The notes under the pieces were generated by a model. That model had not been told where the DNA came from and did not search any database. It worked only from the letters and a program-made list of their open reading frames with translations. Shown here in pieces: positions 34,920 to 43,515 of a stretch of 64,000 nt of DNA. Both the position numbers and the translations under genes were made by a program. Source of the stretch: Candidatus Latescibacterota bacterium (GTDB taxonomy: Bacteria; Latescibacterota; UBA2968); the NCBI GenBank assembly GCA_965198115.1, contig OZ240241.1, positions 8,096,001 to 8,160,000 on the forward strand, given 5' to 3'. How positions within the stretch are numbered: the stretch's first letter is position 1; each line of letters opens with the position of its first letter.

Positions 34920-35537
34920 TCAAATGTGGGGGGCTTCGCCGTTCTGGATTCGGTCGACCATGGATTCGACGTCCTCGATGGGCGGGTCGTTTTCCCGGAT
35001 ATACCGGAAGAGACGGGTTTTGTCACTGTCGTACTCGAGTCGGGATAGAGCCAGGGCACGTCGTTCGTCGATTTCGCCCGTTCGAACGGCCTCCCGAATC
35101 GGGGGTGGTAGCCGATTGAACCGGCGTGCTATGGCGGCCTCCTCTTCCTTCAGTCCAAACCGTGTCGCCAGTTCCTCGTTGGGAAGATGGAACACGTCGG
35201 CACGGCGGAGGAAGTCGACTTCGTCGGCGATGTTGACGCTGTGCGTCTGGAGGTTGGACTGGAAGGCCAGCTCACGGGCGCGTTCCTCGGAGACACGGCG
35301 AACGATGGCGGGAATGGTTGGCATGCCGAGTCGCAGGCACGCCTCGACGCGACGCTGGCCGATGACGAGTTCGTAACGACCGTTCTCGACGGGTCGAACG
35401 ACGATCGGGTCGATCACGCCGTAGCGCTCGATGGACTTGATGAGTGTCGTCAGGTTTTCGGAATCGAGCCTCTGCCGGATCGTCAACTTTCGCGTGTCGA
35501 TGTGTGCGGTCGGGATTTCAAGCAGAGCGTCGGGCAC
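34920..35537 (-). CDS. ParB/Spo0J-like protein (N-terminal ParB domain plus HTH, short C-terminus)
   Basis: LIKSIERYGVIDPIVVR..YELVIGQRRVEA..IPAIV..SNLQ; GAGGAG RBS. Confidence 0.85.
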   Translation of the reverse strand: MPDALLEIPTAHIDTRKLTIRQRLDSENLTTLIKSIERYGVIDPIVVRPVENGRYELVIGQRRVEACLRLGMPTIPAIVRRVSEERARELAFQSNLQTHSVNIADEVDFLRRADVFHLPNEELATRFGLKEEEAAIARRFNRLPPPIREAVRTGEIDERRALALSRLEYDSDKTRLFRYIRENDPPIEDVESMVDRIQNGEAPHI

Positions 35538-35572
35538 CGATCGGGCTCCTCATCGTTCTGACAGTCGTTGTC

Positions 35573-35610
35573 AAAGAAGAAAGCCCAAAGCCCGCGGGGA
35601 GCTTTGGACC
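35573..35610 (-). terminator. Intrinsic terminator/attenuator between the mamK-like and parB-like genes
   Basis: Minus strand GTCCAAAGCT-loop-GGCTTTGGGC followed by TTTCTTCTTT. Confidence 0.55.
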
Positions 35611-35645
35611 TTTTCCTACAGTGGTTGGCGATGATATCGACGAGA

Positions 35646-36737
35646 TCAGGCGGACGTCCATTCCGATTCTGGCATGTCCTGGGCGAGTCGAAGCGCACCG
35701 AGGGCGCCAGCGTAGACGGGATCGTCGACAACCGTCACCCGCGCTGGCCCGAACTCGGCGAGATCGGATTCGATGACGACGGGGAGGCCGCGAATCTGGC
35801 TGCCCCCACCGGCGAGGACGATGTTGTTTCGGAGCTCATCCTGGAATTCGGGTTCGAACGTGGTGATGAGCTCGCGGATCGACGCGAGTGTGTCGGGTAG
35901 AACATCCTCGCACGCCGCTTTGAGCTCTTCGGCGATGTTGTAGAGGACGGCCTTGCCTTCCACCTGAAACTCCACGCTGATCCCTTCGGTGATGGGCGAG
36001 ACGAAGGCGTAACGCTCTTTGATCGACCTGGCCTGGTTTAACGAGATGGGGGAGTCCTTGACCTTTTCCTGGAGCAAGCCGTGGAATTTGTCGTCGATGA
36101 AGCTTCCGGCCTTGTATAGGGTGCGCTGGTCCTCGTCTTCAGGGATCGTGCCGTGCATGCGACAAAGGTCGAGCGTTCCGGCGCCGATGTCGACAACGAG
36201 AGCGTTGTTGTAGAGCCCGAGTCCATAGGCGACTAGGAAGGGTTCGGAGACGACCATGACGGAGTCGACGAGATCCTGGATCACGTCGATGATGGCCTGT
36301 TTGTCGTTCTCGCTCGCGAGCGCGGGGGCGCCGACGACCGCACGGACAGCCTGATTCGGTCGAATTTCGGCCAGTTCGACGACGTGGCGAACCAATTCGC
36401 GTACGGCCTCGACCTCCCGATTGTCGCCTGCCATCGCACCCGGCTGGGGCCGATACCGGAGCACGCCCTTTTCCAAAGGGTAGAACAGATCGAGGGCCAT
36501 CCGGTTGCGGATGCACTCCTCTCCGTAGACGATCGGTTTCTGCAGGAACTTGTAAGCGATCAGATCCTTGGGCCATCCAACGACGCTGGGAACGGTTCGT
36601 GTGACATCGGTGCTGGTCGCAACGGAGCTGTTGGCCGTTCCCAGATCGATGACCATGTAGAGCACATCCTGTGCTGGCGCCGGGGTCTCCTGAATGCGTT
36701 CCGAAGACGCGCGCTCCTGTCCGGTCTCCTCCGGCAT
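35646..36737 (-). CDS. MamK-like bacterial actin
   Basis: IDLGT, SVVGWPKD, YPLEKGVL, VVSEPFLVAYG, VVDIGAGTLDLC, KAG..ID, F.PE.Q, NIVLAGGGSQIRGL and GALRLA..P...W. These match the MamK subfamily blocks (SVVGYPKD, VVSEPF, FQPEYQ) rather than MreB. Confidence 0.88.
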   Translation of the reverse strand: MPEETGQERASSERIQETPAPAQDVLYMVIDLGTANSSVATSTDVTRTVPSVVGWPKDLIAYKFLQKPIVYGEECIRNRMALDLFYPLEKGVLRYRPQPGAMAGDNREVEAVRELVRHVVELAEIRPNQAVRAVVGAPALASENDKQAIIDVIQDLVDSVMVVSEPFLVAYGLGLYNNALVVDIGAGTLDLCRMHGTIPEDEDQRTLYKAGSFIDDKFHGLLQEKVKDSPISLNQARSIKERYAFVSPITEGISVEFQVEGKAVLYNIAEELKAACEDVLPDTLASIRELITTFEPEFQDELRNNIVLAGGGSQIRGLPVVIESDLAEFGPARVTVVDDPVYAGALGALRLAQDMPESEWTSA

Positions 36738-36753
36738 GTTCGACAACTCCTCT

Positions 36754-37104
36754 TCAGTGAGACTGCAATTCGATGGTGATCGGGGCCGTGTCGGTCTCGT
36801 CGTCGGCTGACTCTTCCGAGCTCGAGGGTGTTTCGGGGGGAGGCGTGACGGGTAGACTGGCCTCTTTGACGAACGTTTCTACGATTTGTGTTCGGCGGAT
36901 TCGAAAGCGATCGGCGATGCCACCGGGAATGGCGTGTGGCTCGCTCCTGGGTTCAATCAGCCCGATCCGTGGTGTGGGGGCCACATCCGGTGGGTCGGGG
37001 GGGATCGGGGCGGGCCCATCCGTCCCATCGGGTTCACCTTCGACTCGGCGGCGCCCCTCGACTGCTTCGTTCAATACTTGGTCTGTGAGTGATCGGATGG
37101 ACAC
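36754..37104 (-). CDS. Small acidic Pro-rich, probably disordered protein (116 aa)
   Basis: GTG begins 1 nt after the TPR-gene stop and the ORF ends just before the actin RBS. Sequence includes PAPIPPDPPDVAPTP..TPPPETPSSSEESADDETD. Confidence 0.65.
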   Translation of the reverse strand: MSIRSLTDQVLNEAVEGRRRVEGEPDGTDGPAPIPPDPPDVAPTPRIGLIEPRSEPHAIPGGIADRFRIRRTQIVETFVKEASLPVTPPPETPSSSEESADDETDTAPITIELQSH

Positions 37105-37105
37105 G

Positions 37106-37991
37106 TTAGATCGACTTTTTGAAGAACTCGATCGCTTTGTTGTGCTCGCCCTTGTGTTCGTAGGCGAGCCCGAGACTCTGGTGGATGCCGGGGTGAGCAG
37201 GGTCGAGTTCGACGACGCGGTTGAACGACGTGATGGCGTCGTCGAAACTTCCGCGGGTGTTGTGAACACTCCCGAGTCGGAAATGTGTTTCCGCGTTTTC
37301 GGGTTCTTCGTTCGTTGCCTCGGTCAGACAGCGAACCGCCTCTCCGTAGTTCTCGGTCCGTGTGTAGACTTCGGCCAGTTTGTAGTAGGCCGGGAGGAAG
37401 TGCGAATCGATAGCCATGGCGCTTCGGAGCGCTTCGATGGCTTCTTCGAAAATCGCCGTTGTTGTCGGAGGCGACTCCGAGCTTGTAGCAAGCCGAAGCC
37501 GTACGGTTCAGGTCGACGAGCTTTTGGAAAGAAGCGATGGCCTGCGGATAGTCGCCCTTGTTCTTGTAATTGACCCCGAGATGATCGTGGATCTGCGCCA
37601 GATCCTCACGACCCAATCCAAAGATGTCCTCGAAGAAGGATACGGTCCGATCGGACAGCTGCTTGGCGTAGAGCAGGAAGGTGTAACATGTGCTTTCGAA
37701 GGCGTCGAGCCTCCGTTCGATCCGGTCGAGTCGCGCGAGGACGTCGTCGTCGCCGGGCGAATCGTCGGAGCCTTCGAGGTCCCACTCCTGCGGGAGGCGT
37801 TCTCCGGTGATCTGCGGTGTTGAACTCACGCTGCGTGGTCCTCCGGCGGCCGAGGGGTCGACCTTCCCCACGTATTCGTTGAGAATCTGCTCCTGACGGC
37901 CGCGCTTTCGCTGGCTTCGGGCGATGGCAGGTGTGTCGGGAACAAGGGAGCTTGAACCGACGGCATTCTGGTCTGAGTCTCGGTCGGTCAC
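37106..37991 (-). CDS. MamA-like TPR protein (about 294 aa; 1-nt frameshift in the T-run near 37450)
   Basis: Removing one T joins ..NNGDF to EEAIEALRSAMAIDSHF... Five TPR-like repeats follow an amphipathic LD..Y..L..AK.L..V..F..F segment; C-terminus FRLG..G.FDDAI.SF..AYE..G.H..A..FKK. Confidence 0.72.
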
Positions 37992-39063
37992 GATTCGTCC
38001 TTGGTGACCGCGACACGGCGGTCGTAAGACAGGGAACCCGATCGGACAGATATGTGTGACGCCTTGCGATAATTCTCCGCCCGGCTTAAGCTATTCGCAA
38101 AATAGGCAGAATCGTTTCAATACGGTTAACAGTGGAGACCGTTCCCTAATGAGTTGAGGGTCACCTAAGATCTGGCGGCCATGCGACATAGTGCCATAGG
38201 AGTACTTACAAGGCGCAACGGCCAAAAGCGGTTGTCGGACCTACGCCTGATGTCCCTTTCTTTACGCGAACGCGTTTGGCACATTCCGGGGGATCGGGAC
38301 GCGAAACGCTCTCGATCTCCGACGGGTCCGCCATCGGCAGCACCGCCAGGGAGACGGCCGATTTTCTACCCCGCTTCGCCATTTTCGGGAAGCAGCTTCA
38401 AAGCCGCCTTGTCGACAGACGCAAGCTCTTGTTTTTGCACTGGTTTAAGTGTTTCCGACACCTGAAACCCCCCCTTTCGTCGACAACGGCCGCGATGCGC
38501 CCCCCGGAACGAAAATTAGGACGTTTTAGTAGAAGAAACGGTCCACTTACCGGTGTCCAAAAAAAGAGAGCTGACCGTTTCCACCCCCCCTACCCCCCTA
38601 GTGCGGGCCTCGGGCCAGCGATGCGCCCAGGGCCAACACCGCGCACCCCCTATGCCCGCTGGGACCTGGCCTGGCCACGTCTTGAGCCTAATCGGTCGAA
38701 ACGCGCTATTTTCGCGGTTCGAGAGCCTACTTCTCGCGCGTGTGGGAAAATGAAAAGGGCGCGGTCTACATCGGGACGCCCAGAGAGTTCATCCTCCCTT
38801 ATCTCCGGTCGTCAGTTCTTGGTGCGTGAGAATGCGAATAGCGTTGTCTGGGCGGGAATTTATCGTAAGCCGTAACAAGATATGGGCGGGGTCGTTCGGG
38901 GCCCTTAGGATCGGGCCCGATGGTGCAGGGGGAGGTGTTGGGGGAGCGCCCTGGCGTGAGCCGTAGAGGGCGCAAAATCACGACGAATATATGGGCATCC
39001 CAACAGCCAAGTCAAGCGCTATTTTCAGGTATTACAAGGACATTTGGGCATGTTGGAGCACGG

Positions 39064-39121: not shown

Positions 39122-39853
39122 TTAGAGACTGTTCGCGGGTAGCCCGTAGGCCTCCTCGACCTGGTCTGTGTCGACCATCTCGATGGCCTCCCAAGGACAG
39201 ATTTTGACGCATTGGACGCAGCCGATACAATCGGCGAGACGTACCTCGCAAAATGTCCCGATGCCGTCGAGGCCGGCTTCGTTCACGTCCACCTCTTCGA
39301 TGCAGTCGGTCGGGCACACTTCGATGCAGGCATTGCAGCCCGTACAATAGTCGGGGTTGATGATGGCGATGATCTTGGGGCGTCGCTTCTTCTCCGTCAT
39401 TCCCGACCGCGATTCGAGCCAGAGGTAGTCGTGATAACCGATCCGTCCGTAGTCGGAGAATCGCTCGGGCCAGTAGGCGCCCGTTCGCGGGGCGAATATG
39501 AATTCCCCTTCGGTGTGGGCGTGACTCAAACGATAGCGATCGGCGGTGATCAATTGGTCGGGATCGTCGTCGTAGACGAAGCTGATAAGGTCGTAGCGAA
39601 CGGAGACGATGCGGGCGGCCCTGTCTCGCCACTTGAAGTGGGTACCCGGCAGAAATTCGAGCACGGGCATGGCCTGGCGCTCTTCCTCGACTGCCTCGGT
39701 CGTCGCCGGTCCAGCCTGTGCGGTTGCTGCCGCCGGAGAGGCGTCGGCGCTGGCCCCACCTTCCCGGTTGGCCTTTCGAACGGCATCGGCCTTGGCTTTT
39801 GCCCGCTCCACACGATCGGTAATGCCATCGAACTGTGACAGGTCTACGTTCAA
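39122..39853 (-). CDS. 2x[4Fe-4S] ferredoxin with long N-terminal extension
   Basis: CTGCNACIEVCP and CIGCVQCVKICP; TTG start with GGAGAG RBS. Confidence 0.88.
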   Translation of the reverse strand: MNVDLSQFDGITDRVERAKAKADAVRKANREGGASADASPAAATAQAGPATTEAVEEERQAMPVLEFLPGTHFKWRDRAARIVSVRYDLISFVYDDDPDQLITADRYRLSHAHTEGEFIFAPRTGAYWPERFSDYGRIGYHDYLWLESRSGMTEKKRRPKIIAIINPDYCTGCNACIEVCPTDCIEEVDVNEAGLDGIGTFCEVRLADCIGCVQCVKICPWEAIEMVDTDQVEEAYGLPANSL

Positions 39854-41018: not shown

Positions 41019-41173
41019 GGCGAGCCAGTGGTATAGAATTGAATCAAGTCCTATGTTTTCAATGACTTCCGACGAATTCGAACCGAGCCCGGGAGGGGTG
41101 GTTCGCCACTTCTCTCCGCAGGTCGAGGCACCCCCGCCTCCACCCCAGGTTCTGCTCTCCGCCCGACCACTAA

Positions 41174-42435
41174 GTGCATGGTTTAATAAATATTATTACG
41201 TATGTCTTGAACATTATTTGTAGCTTATGTTCTCCTTCAAAAGGAGGAGAACAATGCCAAGACGTTCGCCTTATGTGGTGCTACTGTCTGAGAAGGAACG
41301 GGTCGACCTCGAGCGAATGGCTGGACAATATACGTTACCGTATTATCAAGTGATCCGATCGAAAATCGTGCTTCTCGCCGCCGAGGGATTATCCAACAAG
41401 ATTATCGCCCAACGGTTGGATGTCCCGCGTCCGATCGTAAGCAAATGGCGTAAGCGCTTTTTCGAAGAGCGTCTTTCGGGACTCGAAGATAGATCTCGTC
41501 CCGGGCGCCCGCCCGGTTTTCCCCCCTCAGGTGGTCGTTCAGATCAAGGCGCTGGCGTGTGAACTACCGAGCGAGAGCGGGATACCGCTCTCGCGGTTCA
41601 GCTGTTCCGAGATTGCCGCCGAGGCAGTGCAAAGGGGCTTCGTTGCCAAGATCAGCGGCGCCACTGTCTGGCGCTGGTTGAACGAGGACGCGATTCGTCC
41701 TTGGTATCATCGCTCCTGGATTTTCCCACGGGACCCGGACTTCCAAACCAAAGCAGGTAGAGTCCTTGATCTGTATCACCGCCAATGGCAAGGAAAGCCT
41801 TTAGGGCCGAGGGAATATGTACTTTCTGCCGACGAAAAGACCAGTATTCAAGCACGAGCTCGCAAGCACGTTACCCTACCGCCAGCCTCGAACAGAGCGG
41901 CACGCGTTGAAACACGAATACGAGCGGAAAGGAGCCCTGGCCTATCTGGCTGCTCTCGACGTGCACAATGGTCGAATCTTCGGTCTCTGTGAGTCTTCTT
42001 CGGGTATCGAGCCCTTCAACCGGCTCCTGAGCCTGATCATGAGCCGGAAACCCTATTGCTCGGCAAAGAAAGTCTACCTCATCGTGGATAATGGCTCCTC
42101 GCACCGAGGGCAAACATGCATCGACCGTATCCAGGGGAAGTGGCCAAACATCCACCCCGTTCACCTTCCGATCCACGCAAGCTGGCTCAATCAGATCGAG
42201 ATCTACTTCTCGATCCTCAAACGCAAGGCTCTGACACCTATCGAATTTGCATCGCTCGAAGAGCTTGAGGCAAGAATCCTCGGTTTTCAGGAACGCTACG
42301 GACGTATCGCCACACCCTTCAAATGGAAGTTTACACGAACAGATCTCGCGGAGATGATCGACAAACTCAGGTTCTACGATACGCCCTTGGCAAAGTCTGC
42401 TTATAATACGTCACCGTATTTGAGAACAGGAGTAC
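41174..42435 (+). mobile_element. IS630-family element (orfA from 41254, orfB reached by a frameshift)
   Basis: HTH orfA, slippery TTTTCCCCCC near 41517, and DDE motifs SADEKT, IVDNGSSH, HASWLNQIE. Degenerate IRs; TAA repeated at 41171-41173 and 42436-42438; an extra frameshift near 41910. Confidence 0.85.
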
Positions 42436-42516
42436 TAAGCCAGATTTCACGCAAGCCAGAAGCCAACCAGATTTCTCCCGTGCGTCCTGGCGTGTCGCAG
42501 ATCCGGAGACAGACGT

Positions 42517-43515
42517 ATGTCTGAAGAAATCGATCTTTCGCAGTTCGATGACATTCCCGATCGCGTGGAACGGGCGAAGGCCAAGGCTGAGGCCATTCGA
42601 AAGATGCGAGAAGGTGACGACAGCGAAGCGCCCGCCCCAGAGCCTGCGCCGGCACAGGAGCCAGCGGCCGAGGCCGAGAGCCCCGAACCCGCTGAAGAAC
42701 CCGCGCCCGTAGCGAGCGCGTCAGAAGGAGGCGAGGGCGAGGTCGACCTGACCGAGTTCGACCATATCACCGATCGCGTCGAACGTGCCAAGGCCAAGGT
42801 GGAAGCGATGCGCAAAGCCGGTGGCGGCGGTGGCGTGGCTGCTTCGGGCGCGGCTCCGGCCAAGAAGGCACCCGCCAAGAAAGCCGCGAGCGCGGCCGAC
42901 AGGGCAGCAGCGGCTCGAGCTCTGACGGAAAAGGGTGACGGCCCGGGACAAGTGATCGTTCAGACGACACCCGCACCCCCCGACATCCGTCCGGGTCCCG
43001 AACGCATCGTTCCGATTGCGTCGGGCGGCATGACGACGCGACGCGGTTTTTTCTCCTGGTTGACGCTTGCGTGGGTGTCATTCGCGGCAGCCTCGACGGC
43101 CGCGCTGGCCGCGACGGGTCGGTTCCTTTTCCCAAACGTCCTGTTCGAGCCGCCACAATCCTTCAAGATCGGGTTTCCCGAAAACTACGATCTGGGTGTT
43201 GACGAACGATGGAAGGATAAGTTTTCGGTTTGGATCGTGAAGGAAACGGAACAGATGTATGCCCTGATTTCGGTCTGTACGCACCTGGGGTGCACTCCAA
43301 ATTGGCTCGCCGGCGATCAAAAGTTCAAATGCCCTTGCCACGGGAGCGGTTTTTTCAGTACGGGCATCAACTTCGAAGGTCCGGCCCCGCGTCCCCTTGA
43401 ACGTGCGCGAATCGTACTGTCCGAAGACGGACAAATCCTGATCGACAAGAACTCGAAGTACCAGTGGGAAAAGGGACAGTGGGAAAATCCTGAGTCCTTC
43501 CTCAAGTTGATCTGA
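42517..43515 (+). CDS. Rieske Fe-S subunit of a cytochrome bc complex with a long repeat-bearing N-terminal extension
   Basis: CTHLGC, CPCHGS and GPAPRPL motifs; TRRGFF Tat-like motif before the TM helix. Confidence 0.93.
   Translation: MSEEIDLSQFDDIPDRVERAKAKAEAIRKMREGDDSEAPAPEPAPAQEPAAEAESPEPAEEPAPVASASEGGEGEVDLTEFDHITDRVERAKAKVEAMRKAGGGGGVAASGAAPAKKAPAKKAASAADRAAAARALTEKGDGPGQVIVQTTPAPPDIRPGPERIVPIASGGMTTRRGFFSWLTLAWVSFAAASTAALAATGRFLFPNVLFEPPQSFKIGFPENYDLGVDERWKDKFSVWIVKETEQMYALISVCTHLGCTPNWLAGDQKFKCPCHGSGFFSTGINFEGPAPRPLERARIVLSEDGQILIDKNSKYQWEKGQWENPESFLKLI

Follow-up and report, generated by a model that had tools for sequence, protein, structure and literature searches.

A conserved four-gene block with a MamK-like actin and a MamA-type repeat protein in Latescibacterota: a candidate non-magnetic positioning scaffold

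Why should a bacterium carry relatives of the magnetosome proteins MamA and MamK side by side, with no magnetosome gene cluster around them? The question is raised by positions 34920-37991 of a 64,000-nucleotide stretch of Candidatus Latescibacterota bacterium (GenBank assembly GCA_965198115.1, contig OZ240241.1, positions 8,096,001 to 8,160,000), which at its full length is referred to below as the window. The source genome, G000, is a single contig of 8.43 Mb (100% complete, 5.1% contaminated). A first-pass annotation had described here three tightly packed genes on the minus strand, and all three are in place: a MamA-type tetratricopeptide repeat (TPR) gene (37991-37106), an acidic linker gene (37104-36754, after a 1-nt gap) and a MamK-family actin gene (36737-35646, after a 16-nt gap). 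As a description of the whole unit this fell short, since a fourth minus-strand gene, a ParB-like open reading frame (35537-34920), lies within the same interval. We suggest, with a probability of roughly 0.5, that the four genes build a scaffold by which motile cells position a non-magnetic cargo, that this scaffold is kin to the magnetosome chain machinery, and that G000 is losing it along with the flagellum.

Results

The four genes form one conserved block

We surveyed 168 Latescibacterota genomes. The actin occurs in 31 of them, all belonging to one class (132 genomes), and the named relatives that bear it are mostly labelled Candidatus Latescibacterota. An orthologue of the TPR gene is found in 13 of the 168, of which 12 also have the actin; the thirteenth is an 80%-complete genome with the gene at a contig end. 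As a block the genes occur in 12 of the 168 genomes, from three families. The ParB-like gene was found in 11 genomes, all of them among the 12 with both TPR and actin, and in the twelfth the contig ends after the actin. The TPR gene stands directly 5′ of the actin in 11/11 named loci, and the ParB-like gene 3′ of it in 10/11, the remaining contig ending there. The four genes are thus one conserved block. Its proteins are 55-87% identical across the three families, their reading frames are intact and the promoter is conserved; taken together, the sequences suggest that the block has long been under selection.

The block is set among housekeeping genes and not on a mobile element. That its neighbours are housekeeping and respiratory genes had been stated in the first-pass annotation, and we found no magnetosome gene among the neighbours scanned. 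The ferredoxin and rluD genes that flank it are ~100-400 bp apart, with no block between them, in G026, G027 and the same-genus G001; in G002 the two flanks fall on separate contigs, and for G014 no ferredoxin match was obtained. We considered the ferredoxin, HEAT and Rieske/cytochrome b genes as possible mad9/mad23-like members of the block and rejected them: they persist where the block has been lost, and they are not 5′ of it in genus g6. No gene of the block is readable as a membrane or vesicle-forming protein, and no cargo-forming gene co-travels with it.

The actin is related to MamK

We compared the intact actin (363 aa) with NCBIfam models and with solved structures. It obtains 398.9 bits on the MamK model NF040964, just short of the cut-off of 400, compared with 194.7 on BeeR (NF053558, cut-off 530) and 61.1 on MreB, and five close block actins reach 402-414 bits on MamK. 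Its best solved relative is MamK (5LJW, E 8e-86), followed by BeeR (8R2N, E 2e-36), with MreB structures at 7e-9 or weaker. The alignment to 5LJW is full-length, with DxGT, VSEPF and DIGAGT in register; the Glu of VSEPF we take to be catalytic. Every motif that had been named for this actin earlier was found in it. The protein is 42-46% identical to 16 MamKs from presumed magnetosome clusters versus 22-23% to 4 MreBs, and it departs from the family at 1 of 179 conserved columns (family median, 3). In a tree of 67 rows it groups with other block actins in a clade of 9 rows (100/99), which has the actins of family f4 as its sister group (100/95); these, together with KSB1-like and unnamed actins, are divided from the 16 cluster MamKs by a split at 93/99, short of a star. 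Branching with MreB, which the first-pass annotation had named as grounds for rejecting its reading, is contradicted by identities and trees alike, and on sequence grounds we regard the actin as MamK-like. By analogy it likely forms an ATP-driven filament of the MamK type.

In this tree, which holds MamKs of the Desulfobacterota type only, the actin does not branch with magnetosome-cluster MamK. Loci were called magnetosome clusters on content such as that of L167, which holds a cation diffusion facilitator (CDF; 258 bits on MamB/MamM), a MamN-like gene, FeoB, a MamK above cut-off and a second divergent actin; the labels Desulfobacterota-type and Mad28 for these loci are our assumption. The actin trees were built without alphaproteobacterial or Nitrospirota MamK, BeeR and Bbp rows, and the root shifted between the quick and the careful tree; for both reasons, these trees do not tell a relic from a precursor. 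Complex prediction of actin with linker gave a median of 0.21, the mark being 0.32. A plasmid collection returned MreB-level matches only (5 records at ~25%).

Separately, f4 loci (L058 9375-11047, L059, L064, L070) encode a conserved coiled-coil protein that starts with a hydrophobic stretch and has an invariably kept Trp near its C-terminus; the clustering grouped 32 loci.

The TPR protein is probably a remote MamA homologue

The TPR protein comprises a disordered N-terminus, a long helix, a MamA-like pre-repeat segment and five TPRs; its predicted structure (pLDDT, the model's own confidence score, 88.5) has a long helix, a short helix and five helix pairs. The best natural match of this model is MamA (3VTX/3VTY), behind two designed repeat proteins. 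All eight intact homologues (8/8) give 128-169 bits on the MamA model NF040959, below its cut-off of 200, each as one collinear match to model positions 9-199. With the pre-repeat piece alone, MamA is the top match in 4/4 cases (E 0.02-0.07). MamA as best NCBIfam family was dropped as a criterion, the same being seen in 25 of 30 other TPR proteins, among which one, P0232 (247 bits), is a true MamA.

We therefore used a profile built from 56 deltaproteobacterial MamA-type proteins gathered with P0232, two of which are called MamA in their source records, and a control set of 221 TPR proteins. The 59 block TPRs all obtain 108-138 bits on the full profile; none of 74 controls exceeds 102 bits, and none of the 147 giant repeat proteins that complete the set exceeds 100. 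These giant proteins had dominated a cluster-representative search with the TPR, which yielded no further MamA lineages, and were reused as controls. The window protein, read with X at its break, scores 115.8 bits. On a profile restricted to the pre-repeat segment, block TPRs reach 8-19 bits versus at most 3.3 in controls, and when this profile was run against all six frames of G000 at E 10 the TPR gene was the sole match. Pre-repeat pieces have a median of 16.8 compared with a shuffle maximum of 11.4 (n=1180), the lowest real piece scoring -2.8. Nine aligned rows share 75 invariant positions. We conclude from these comparisons that the protein is probably a remote but specific MamA homologue, the case resting mainly on the pre-repeat segment. 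The affinity to MamA proposed earlier is in this way supported by the profile tests and not by the tree, which does not join the TPR with MamA; a constrained tree uniting the two is not rejected (P = 0.39, approximately unbiased test).

A disordered linker and an orphan ParB-like protein complete the block

The linker (116 aa) is mostly disordered, and the earlier description of it as acidic and Pro-rich is accurate (isoelectric point 4.5, 19% D+E, 16% P). Eighteen aligned rows reveal three conserved patches: an N-terminal helix, a central PGGxxxRF and a C-terminal ITIELQSH, the last missing in f3-type and L110/L119 rows. It matched no Pfam or NCBIfam family, and a homologue gave no usable Atlas match. 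In L110 and L119 the linker gene is 5′ of a sister actin and the ParB-like gene 3′, with no TPR in the locus. As a separate observation, a lineage of low GC content (L110 2396-7422, L119, L125) carries in a row the linker, a short coiled coil, the actin, the ParB-like gene, a Lys-rich disordered gene and ParA, the TPR missing from the locus.

The ParB-like protein is shortened (205 aa). It has ParB_N and HTH_ParB domains and retains the GxRR form of the ParB GxxR nucleotide motif in 13/13 block-type rows; each of these 13 copies also has an acidic recognition helix in its helix-turn-helix. Alignment with the chromosomal ParB of G000 shows that it is without the ParA-binding N-terminal peptide and the C-terminal dimer domain. 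In sequence it is nearer to Noc/ParB (E 1e-21) than to PadC (2e-4). G000 also carries a separate, complete chromosomal parAB. Two parS-like sites, the only two, were seen at G000:C1:6021034 and 6021689, ~2.15 Mb from chromosomal parAB.

Searches for other magnetosome genes

The first-pass annotation recognised no mamB/M/E/O/I/L/Q gene in this stretch, and no magnetosome gene set came up in G000 as a whole: searches for MamB/MamM, MamQ, MamI and magnetochrome were all empty, the controls for MamI and magnetochrome being silent as well. No MamB or MamM model matched G000 at E 0.001, a level at which 13 of 14 control genomes are positive. LemA/MamQ was found in 0/5 near-complete genomes including G000 (controls, 6/14), and MamI and magnetochrome in 0/5 each, with control genomes likewise silent. 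Across the phylum 21 of 168 genomes exceed the curated MamK cut-off and none exceeds that of MamB, a threshold that deep-branching MamB can miss and that the true cluster CDF of L167 (258 bits) misses too. For this reason the telling fact is the missing CDF: G000, G036 and G077 (1-2 contigs, 96-100% complete) contain no CDF match whatsoever. The top CDF matches of the phylum had no magnetosome-like neighbours by inspection (5 loci read). When 215 proteins from 21 magnetosome-cluster loci were compared with G000, no CDF, MamN-like or coiled-coil match was obtained; matches were limited to the actin, generic HEAT, ferredoxin, regulator, FeoB, DtxR-like and HtrA proteins and one further unnamed family. 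MamE-like cluster proteins used as queries matched one HtrA locus, at 35-40% identity.

Elsewhere, the sister actins of L112, L126, L129 and L150 adjoin FeoB and/or a DtxR-like gene, as is seen beside MamK in cluster loci, and L150 (2072-4738, 17641-20990) has MamE-like and MamP-like genes ~7 kb from its actin, with Cys-rich genes without CxxCH nearby. This may be a magnetosome-like cluster of another lineage.

The block co-occurs with flagellar genes, and both are damaged in G000

The flagellar gene flhA is present in 26 of the 31 actin-bearing genomes versus 19 of the remaining 101 in the class. Within the three families that have the full block, the corresponding figures are 10/12 and 4/44, and by genus the actin is found in 0/7 without flhA and 19/24 with it. 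Five actin-bearing genomes have no flhA. Four are 83-92% complete, and the fifth is G000, whose flagellar cluster (L187, G000:C1:4514500-4522500) misses the flhA-to-flgD region; the genes that we read as fliF, fliI and fliA carry lesions. Seven of the 12 rows of this cluster are damaged (one of them an antisense open reading frame); 38 rows outside it included 2 frameshifts, one being that of the TPR gene, 1 doubtful stop and 2 partial rows. Contigs from a sample match the decaying flagellar region exactly.

In the window, the TPR gene is interrupted by a surplus base within a four-T run (37452-37449), while it is in frame in 11/11 named relatives and in its close kin P0170; the actin, linker and ParB-like genes of G000 are intact. 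A frameshift near 37450 had been noted before and its repair proposed. The lesion is there, and an assembly slip is an unlikely source of it: separately assembled contigs, from two runs of the same sample as above, carry the same extra base and are identical to 36600-38083 (0 differences, 0 gaps). That sample may be the genome's own source, so that the contigs are a separate assembly and not a second observation. The window copy is substituted at 2 of 76 conserved columns of the TPR, and 13 of 57 kin have as many; because there is no such excess, the break is probably recent. In the record of a close relative (P0184, P0036; 8.1-Mb contig) the TPR and linker genes are fused, but out of frame, and the actin is cut short, which would represent either decay or long-read errors.

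Cargo candidates were also searched for in the class. Gas vesicles were rejected, GvpA occurring in 1 of 132 genomes; this sole bearer, G079 (3 matches), has the block too. Microcompartments were rejected as well: their shell proteins are found in 53/53 genomes of the order, so they cannot explain a patchy block.

Surroundings of the block

A sigma-70-type promoter-like site on the minus strand (38986-39015, 10/12 consensus match) is likely the block's own promoter; of 17 related loci, 11 have the 8-mer around its first hexamer 5′ of their TPR gene as well. Between this site and the TPR start, outside the conserved block, is an 823-bp mobile repeat (38055-38877) resembling a miniature inverted-repeat transposable element, with 45-nt terminal inverted repeats that are 76% complementary and ~20 copies in G000 at 90-99% identity. 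A terminator-like hairpin (35580-35612, minus strand) between the actin and ParB-like genes is weak, 3 such sites being present in the region compared with 4.8 expected in shuffles. Farther upstream, an insertion element (IS630-like by our reading) at ~41170-42440 separates the HEAT gene from the Rieske gene; its 94 blastn matches in G000, the best 15 at 99% or more, point to what would be a recent expansion. The ferredoxin (39122-39853) and the Rieske protein (42517-43515) have in common a short N-terminal motif, present twice in the window's Rieske protein and kept in relatives, possibly a shared docking peptide of this cytochrome bc cluster.

Discussion

If the block is a positioning scaffold of motile cells, its parts can be assigned roles from their families. 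The actin would polymerise into a long cytoplasmic filament, as MamK does, and copies of the MamA-type TPR protein would assemble with one another via the pre-repeat segment, coating the cargo on its cytoplasmic side. Short conserved patches would allow the disordered linker to bridge coat and filament, in the manner of MamJ. The ParB-like protein would resemble PadC, as a nucleotide switch that has lost parS recognition, and may connect the filament with ParA or the nucleoid. The cargo tied to the filament would be non-magnetic, lie on the membrane side and be something that flagellated cells need; that this is a polar or cell-axis structure tied to swimming we hold tentatively, at slightly less than even odds, the main alternative being an inclusion or vesicle of free-living cells. 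Of the earlier interpretation, the kinship with the magnetosome positioning machinery stands, given the MamK-type actin and the MamA profile tests. The coat of a vesicle or organelle is conjecture: the block has no gene readable as a membrane or vesicle-forming one, flagellar motility is the best correlate that we found, and this copy is damaged.

The block is like the chain machinery of MamK, MamA and MamJ (5LJW/5JYG; 3VTX, 3AS5, 4XI0) in its MamK-family actin, in a TPR protein with pre-repeat segment and five repeats and in an acidic disordered gene just 5′ of the actin. It is unlike it in that the genome has no detected mamB/M/Q/I, magnetochrome or mad-type genes, the TPR proteins score below the MamA cut-off (128-169 versus 200 bits), the linker has no library family, the ParB-like gene is an obligate member, and the actin lies outside the Desulfobacterota-type MamK group. 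Other MamK-related actins have been described outside magnetosome clusters. BeeR of Verrucomicrobiota (PMC11929497, 8R2N, NF053558) shares with the block actin a non-magnetotactic host and is described there with a disordered N-terminal extension and no assigned function; it is three-stranded and 25-30% identical to MamK, and by its scores the block actin is much nearer to MamK than to BeeR. Bbp, the big bacteria protein (PMC10580974), is likewise a MamK-like actin outside magnetosome clusters with an adjoining hypothetical partner gene, but it comes from giants of Desulfobacterota and Gammaproteobacteria and has a Kelch-like neighbour; we set it apart by this description only, and the text of that article mentions neither Latescibacteria nor KSB1. 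A pairing of an orphan ParB-fold nucleotide switch with a cytoskeletal polymer is known from the PadC-bactofilin scaffold of Myxococcus xanthus (PMC12704722, 6RYK). PadC has a ParA-binding motif and binds bactofilin, whereas the block protein is without the canonical motif and partnered by an actin; the passages on orphan ParBs in PMC12704722 mention no MamK or TPR.

Several points weigh against the reading of the block as a scaffold of motile cells akin to the magnetosome chain. Nineteen f4 actins occur without this TPR, and in the f4 loci read a coiled coil of 178-189 aa then follows the actin. A 40-row TPR tree separates the block TPRs from MamA with control rows in between, and mean identity of block TPRs is 26% to MamA versus 24% to controls. 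As for motility, 19 flhA-bearing genomes have no actin, including G001 of the same genus; a search with the sigma-28 consensus found no promoter of that type in 17 upstream regions; the block is not adjacent to flagellar genes; and CheW is present in only 5 of 12 block genomes. The flhA link may mark a free-living lifestyle only, as kin are non-independent and host-associated lineages shed many genes together. Finally, the TPR break could be unrelated to motility, given the other damage in G000 (94 insertion-element matches, 1 other frameshift in 38 rows).

The block might also coat and align a non-magnetic vesicle or inclusion of free-living Latescibacterota, with motility as a lifestyle marker. 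MamA is described as coating the magnetosome membrane (PMC4482739), the block TPR keeps the MamA pre-repeat segment, and the flhA link is not exclusive; as no cargo-forming gene travels with the block and neither gas vesicles nor microcompartments fit, we consider this unlikely, if well worth keeping in view. An actin-based partitioning of DNA or nucleoid, in which the ParB-like protein serves as the adaptor to DNA and the TPR and linker proteins have accessory roles, would account for the strict coupling of the ParB-like gene to the actin, for its ParB_N and HTH_ParB domains and for the ParA-type gene within a few genes in L110, L125 and L150. This is made improbable by the acidic recognition helix, by the missing ParA-binding peptide and dimer domain, by the complete chromosomal parAB of G000 with only two parS-like sites ~2.1 Mb away, and by a setting among housekeeping genes instead of a mobile element.

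We are more sceptical still of the view that the block is what is left of an ancestral magnetosome cluster, inert or fading and without a present job. Such a relic would leave two magnetosome-type genes side by side, and the FeoB/DtxR-like genes beside the sister actins of L112, L126, L129 and L150, the MamE-like and MamP-like genes near the last of these, and the broken G000 copy are in keeping with it; the identity across three families, the invariant TPR positions, the intact frames and the conserved promoter argue against it. A relic origin followed by a new job is a part of the best explanation that we leave open. Finally, there is hardly any chance that the organism is magnetotactic and the block a piece of a split magnetosome cluster. 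A magnetotactic Latescibacterota lineage has been published (PMC7602337, PMC7449369). Against this reading, PMC7602337 gives mamABIKMQ as the magnetosome core and mamBIMQ as essential, G000, G036 and G077 have no CDF match, and the 5/5 near-complete genomes no LemA, MamI or magnetochrome match (with controls silent for the latter two).

Our literature search found no paper on a block of MamA-like, linker, MamK and ParB-like genes, the supplements of MamK screens, where such genomes could appear, lying outside that search. Orphan MamK-like actins are already in print as BeeR and Bbp; the pairing with a MamA-type TPR protein did not turn up in our searches, and the block is apparently a variant, of four genes and in bacteria that are not magnetotactic, of the kit for positioning magnetosomes that is new to the literature. 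This bears on genome screens. The gene mamK serves as a marker for magnetotactic bacteria in PMC7449369, where 2798 MamK-like matches are reported with 227 retained for other mam genes. In Latescibacterota, with genomes above the MamK cut-off and none above that of MamB, matches to mamA-like and mamK genes are no proof of magnetotaxis.

The origin of the magnetosome chain is under debate, and with the block it becomes possible to ask concretely whether the machinery for positioning is older than the magnetosome or was recycled from it. MamA and MamK are the two core magnetosome genes that are dispensable for making mineral. One conjecture, which we rate as rather doubtful at present, is that the two belong to an older, mineral-independent scaffold of motile cells, and that the block, with its TPR coat, tether, actin track and ParB-derived switch, is the living form of this scaffold, positioning a polar or organelle cargo. 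If this were true, magnetotaxis would have arisen by attaching crystal-making vesicles to a pre-existing track.

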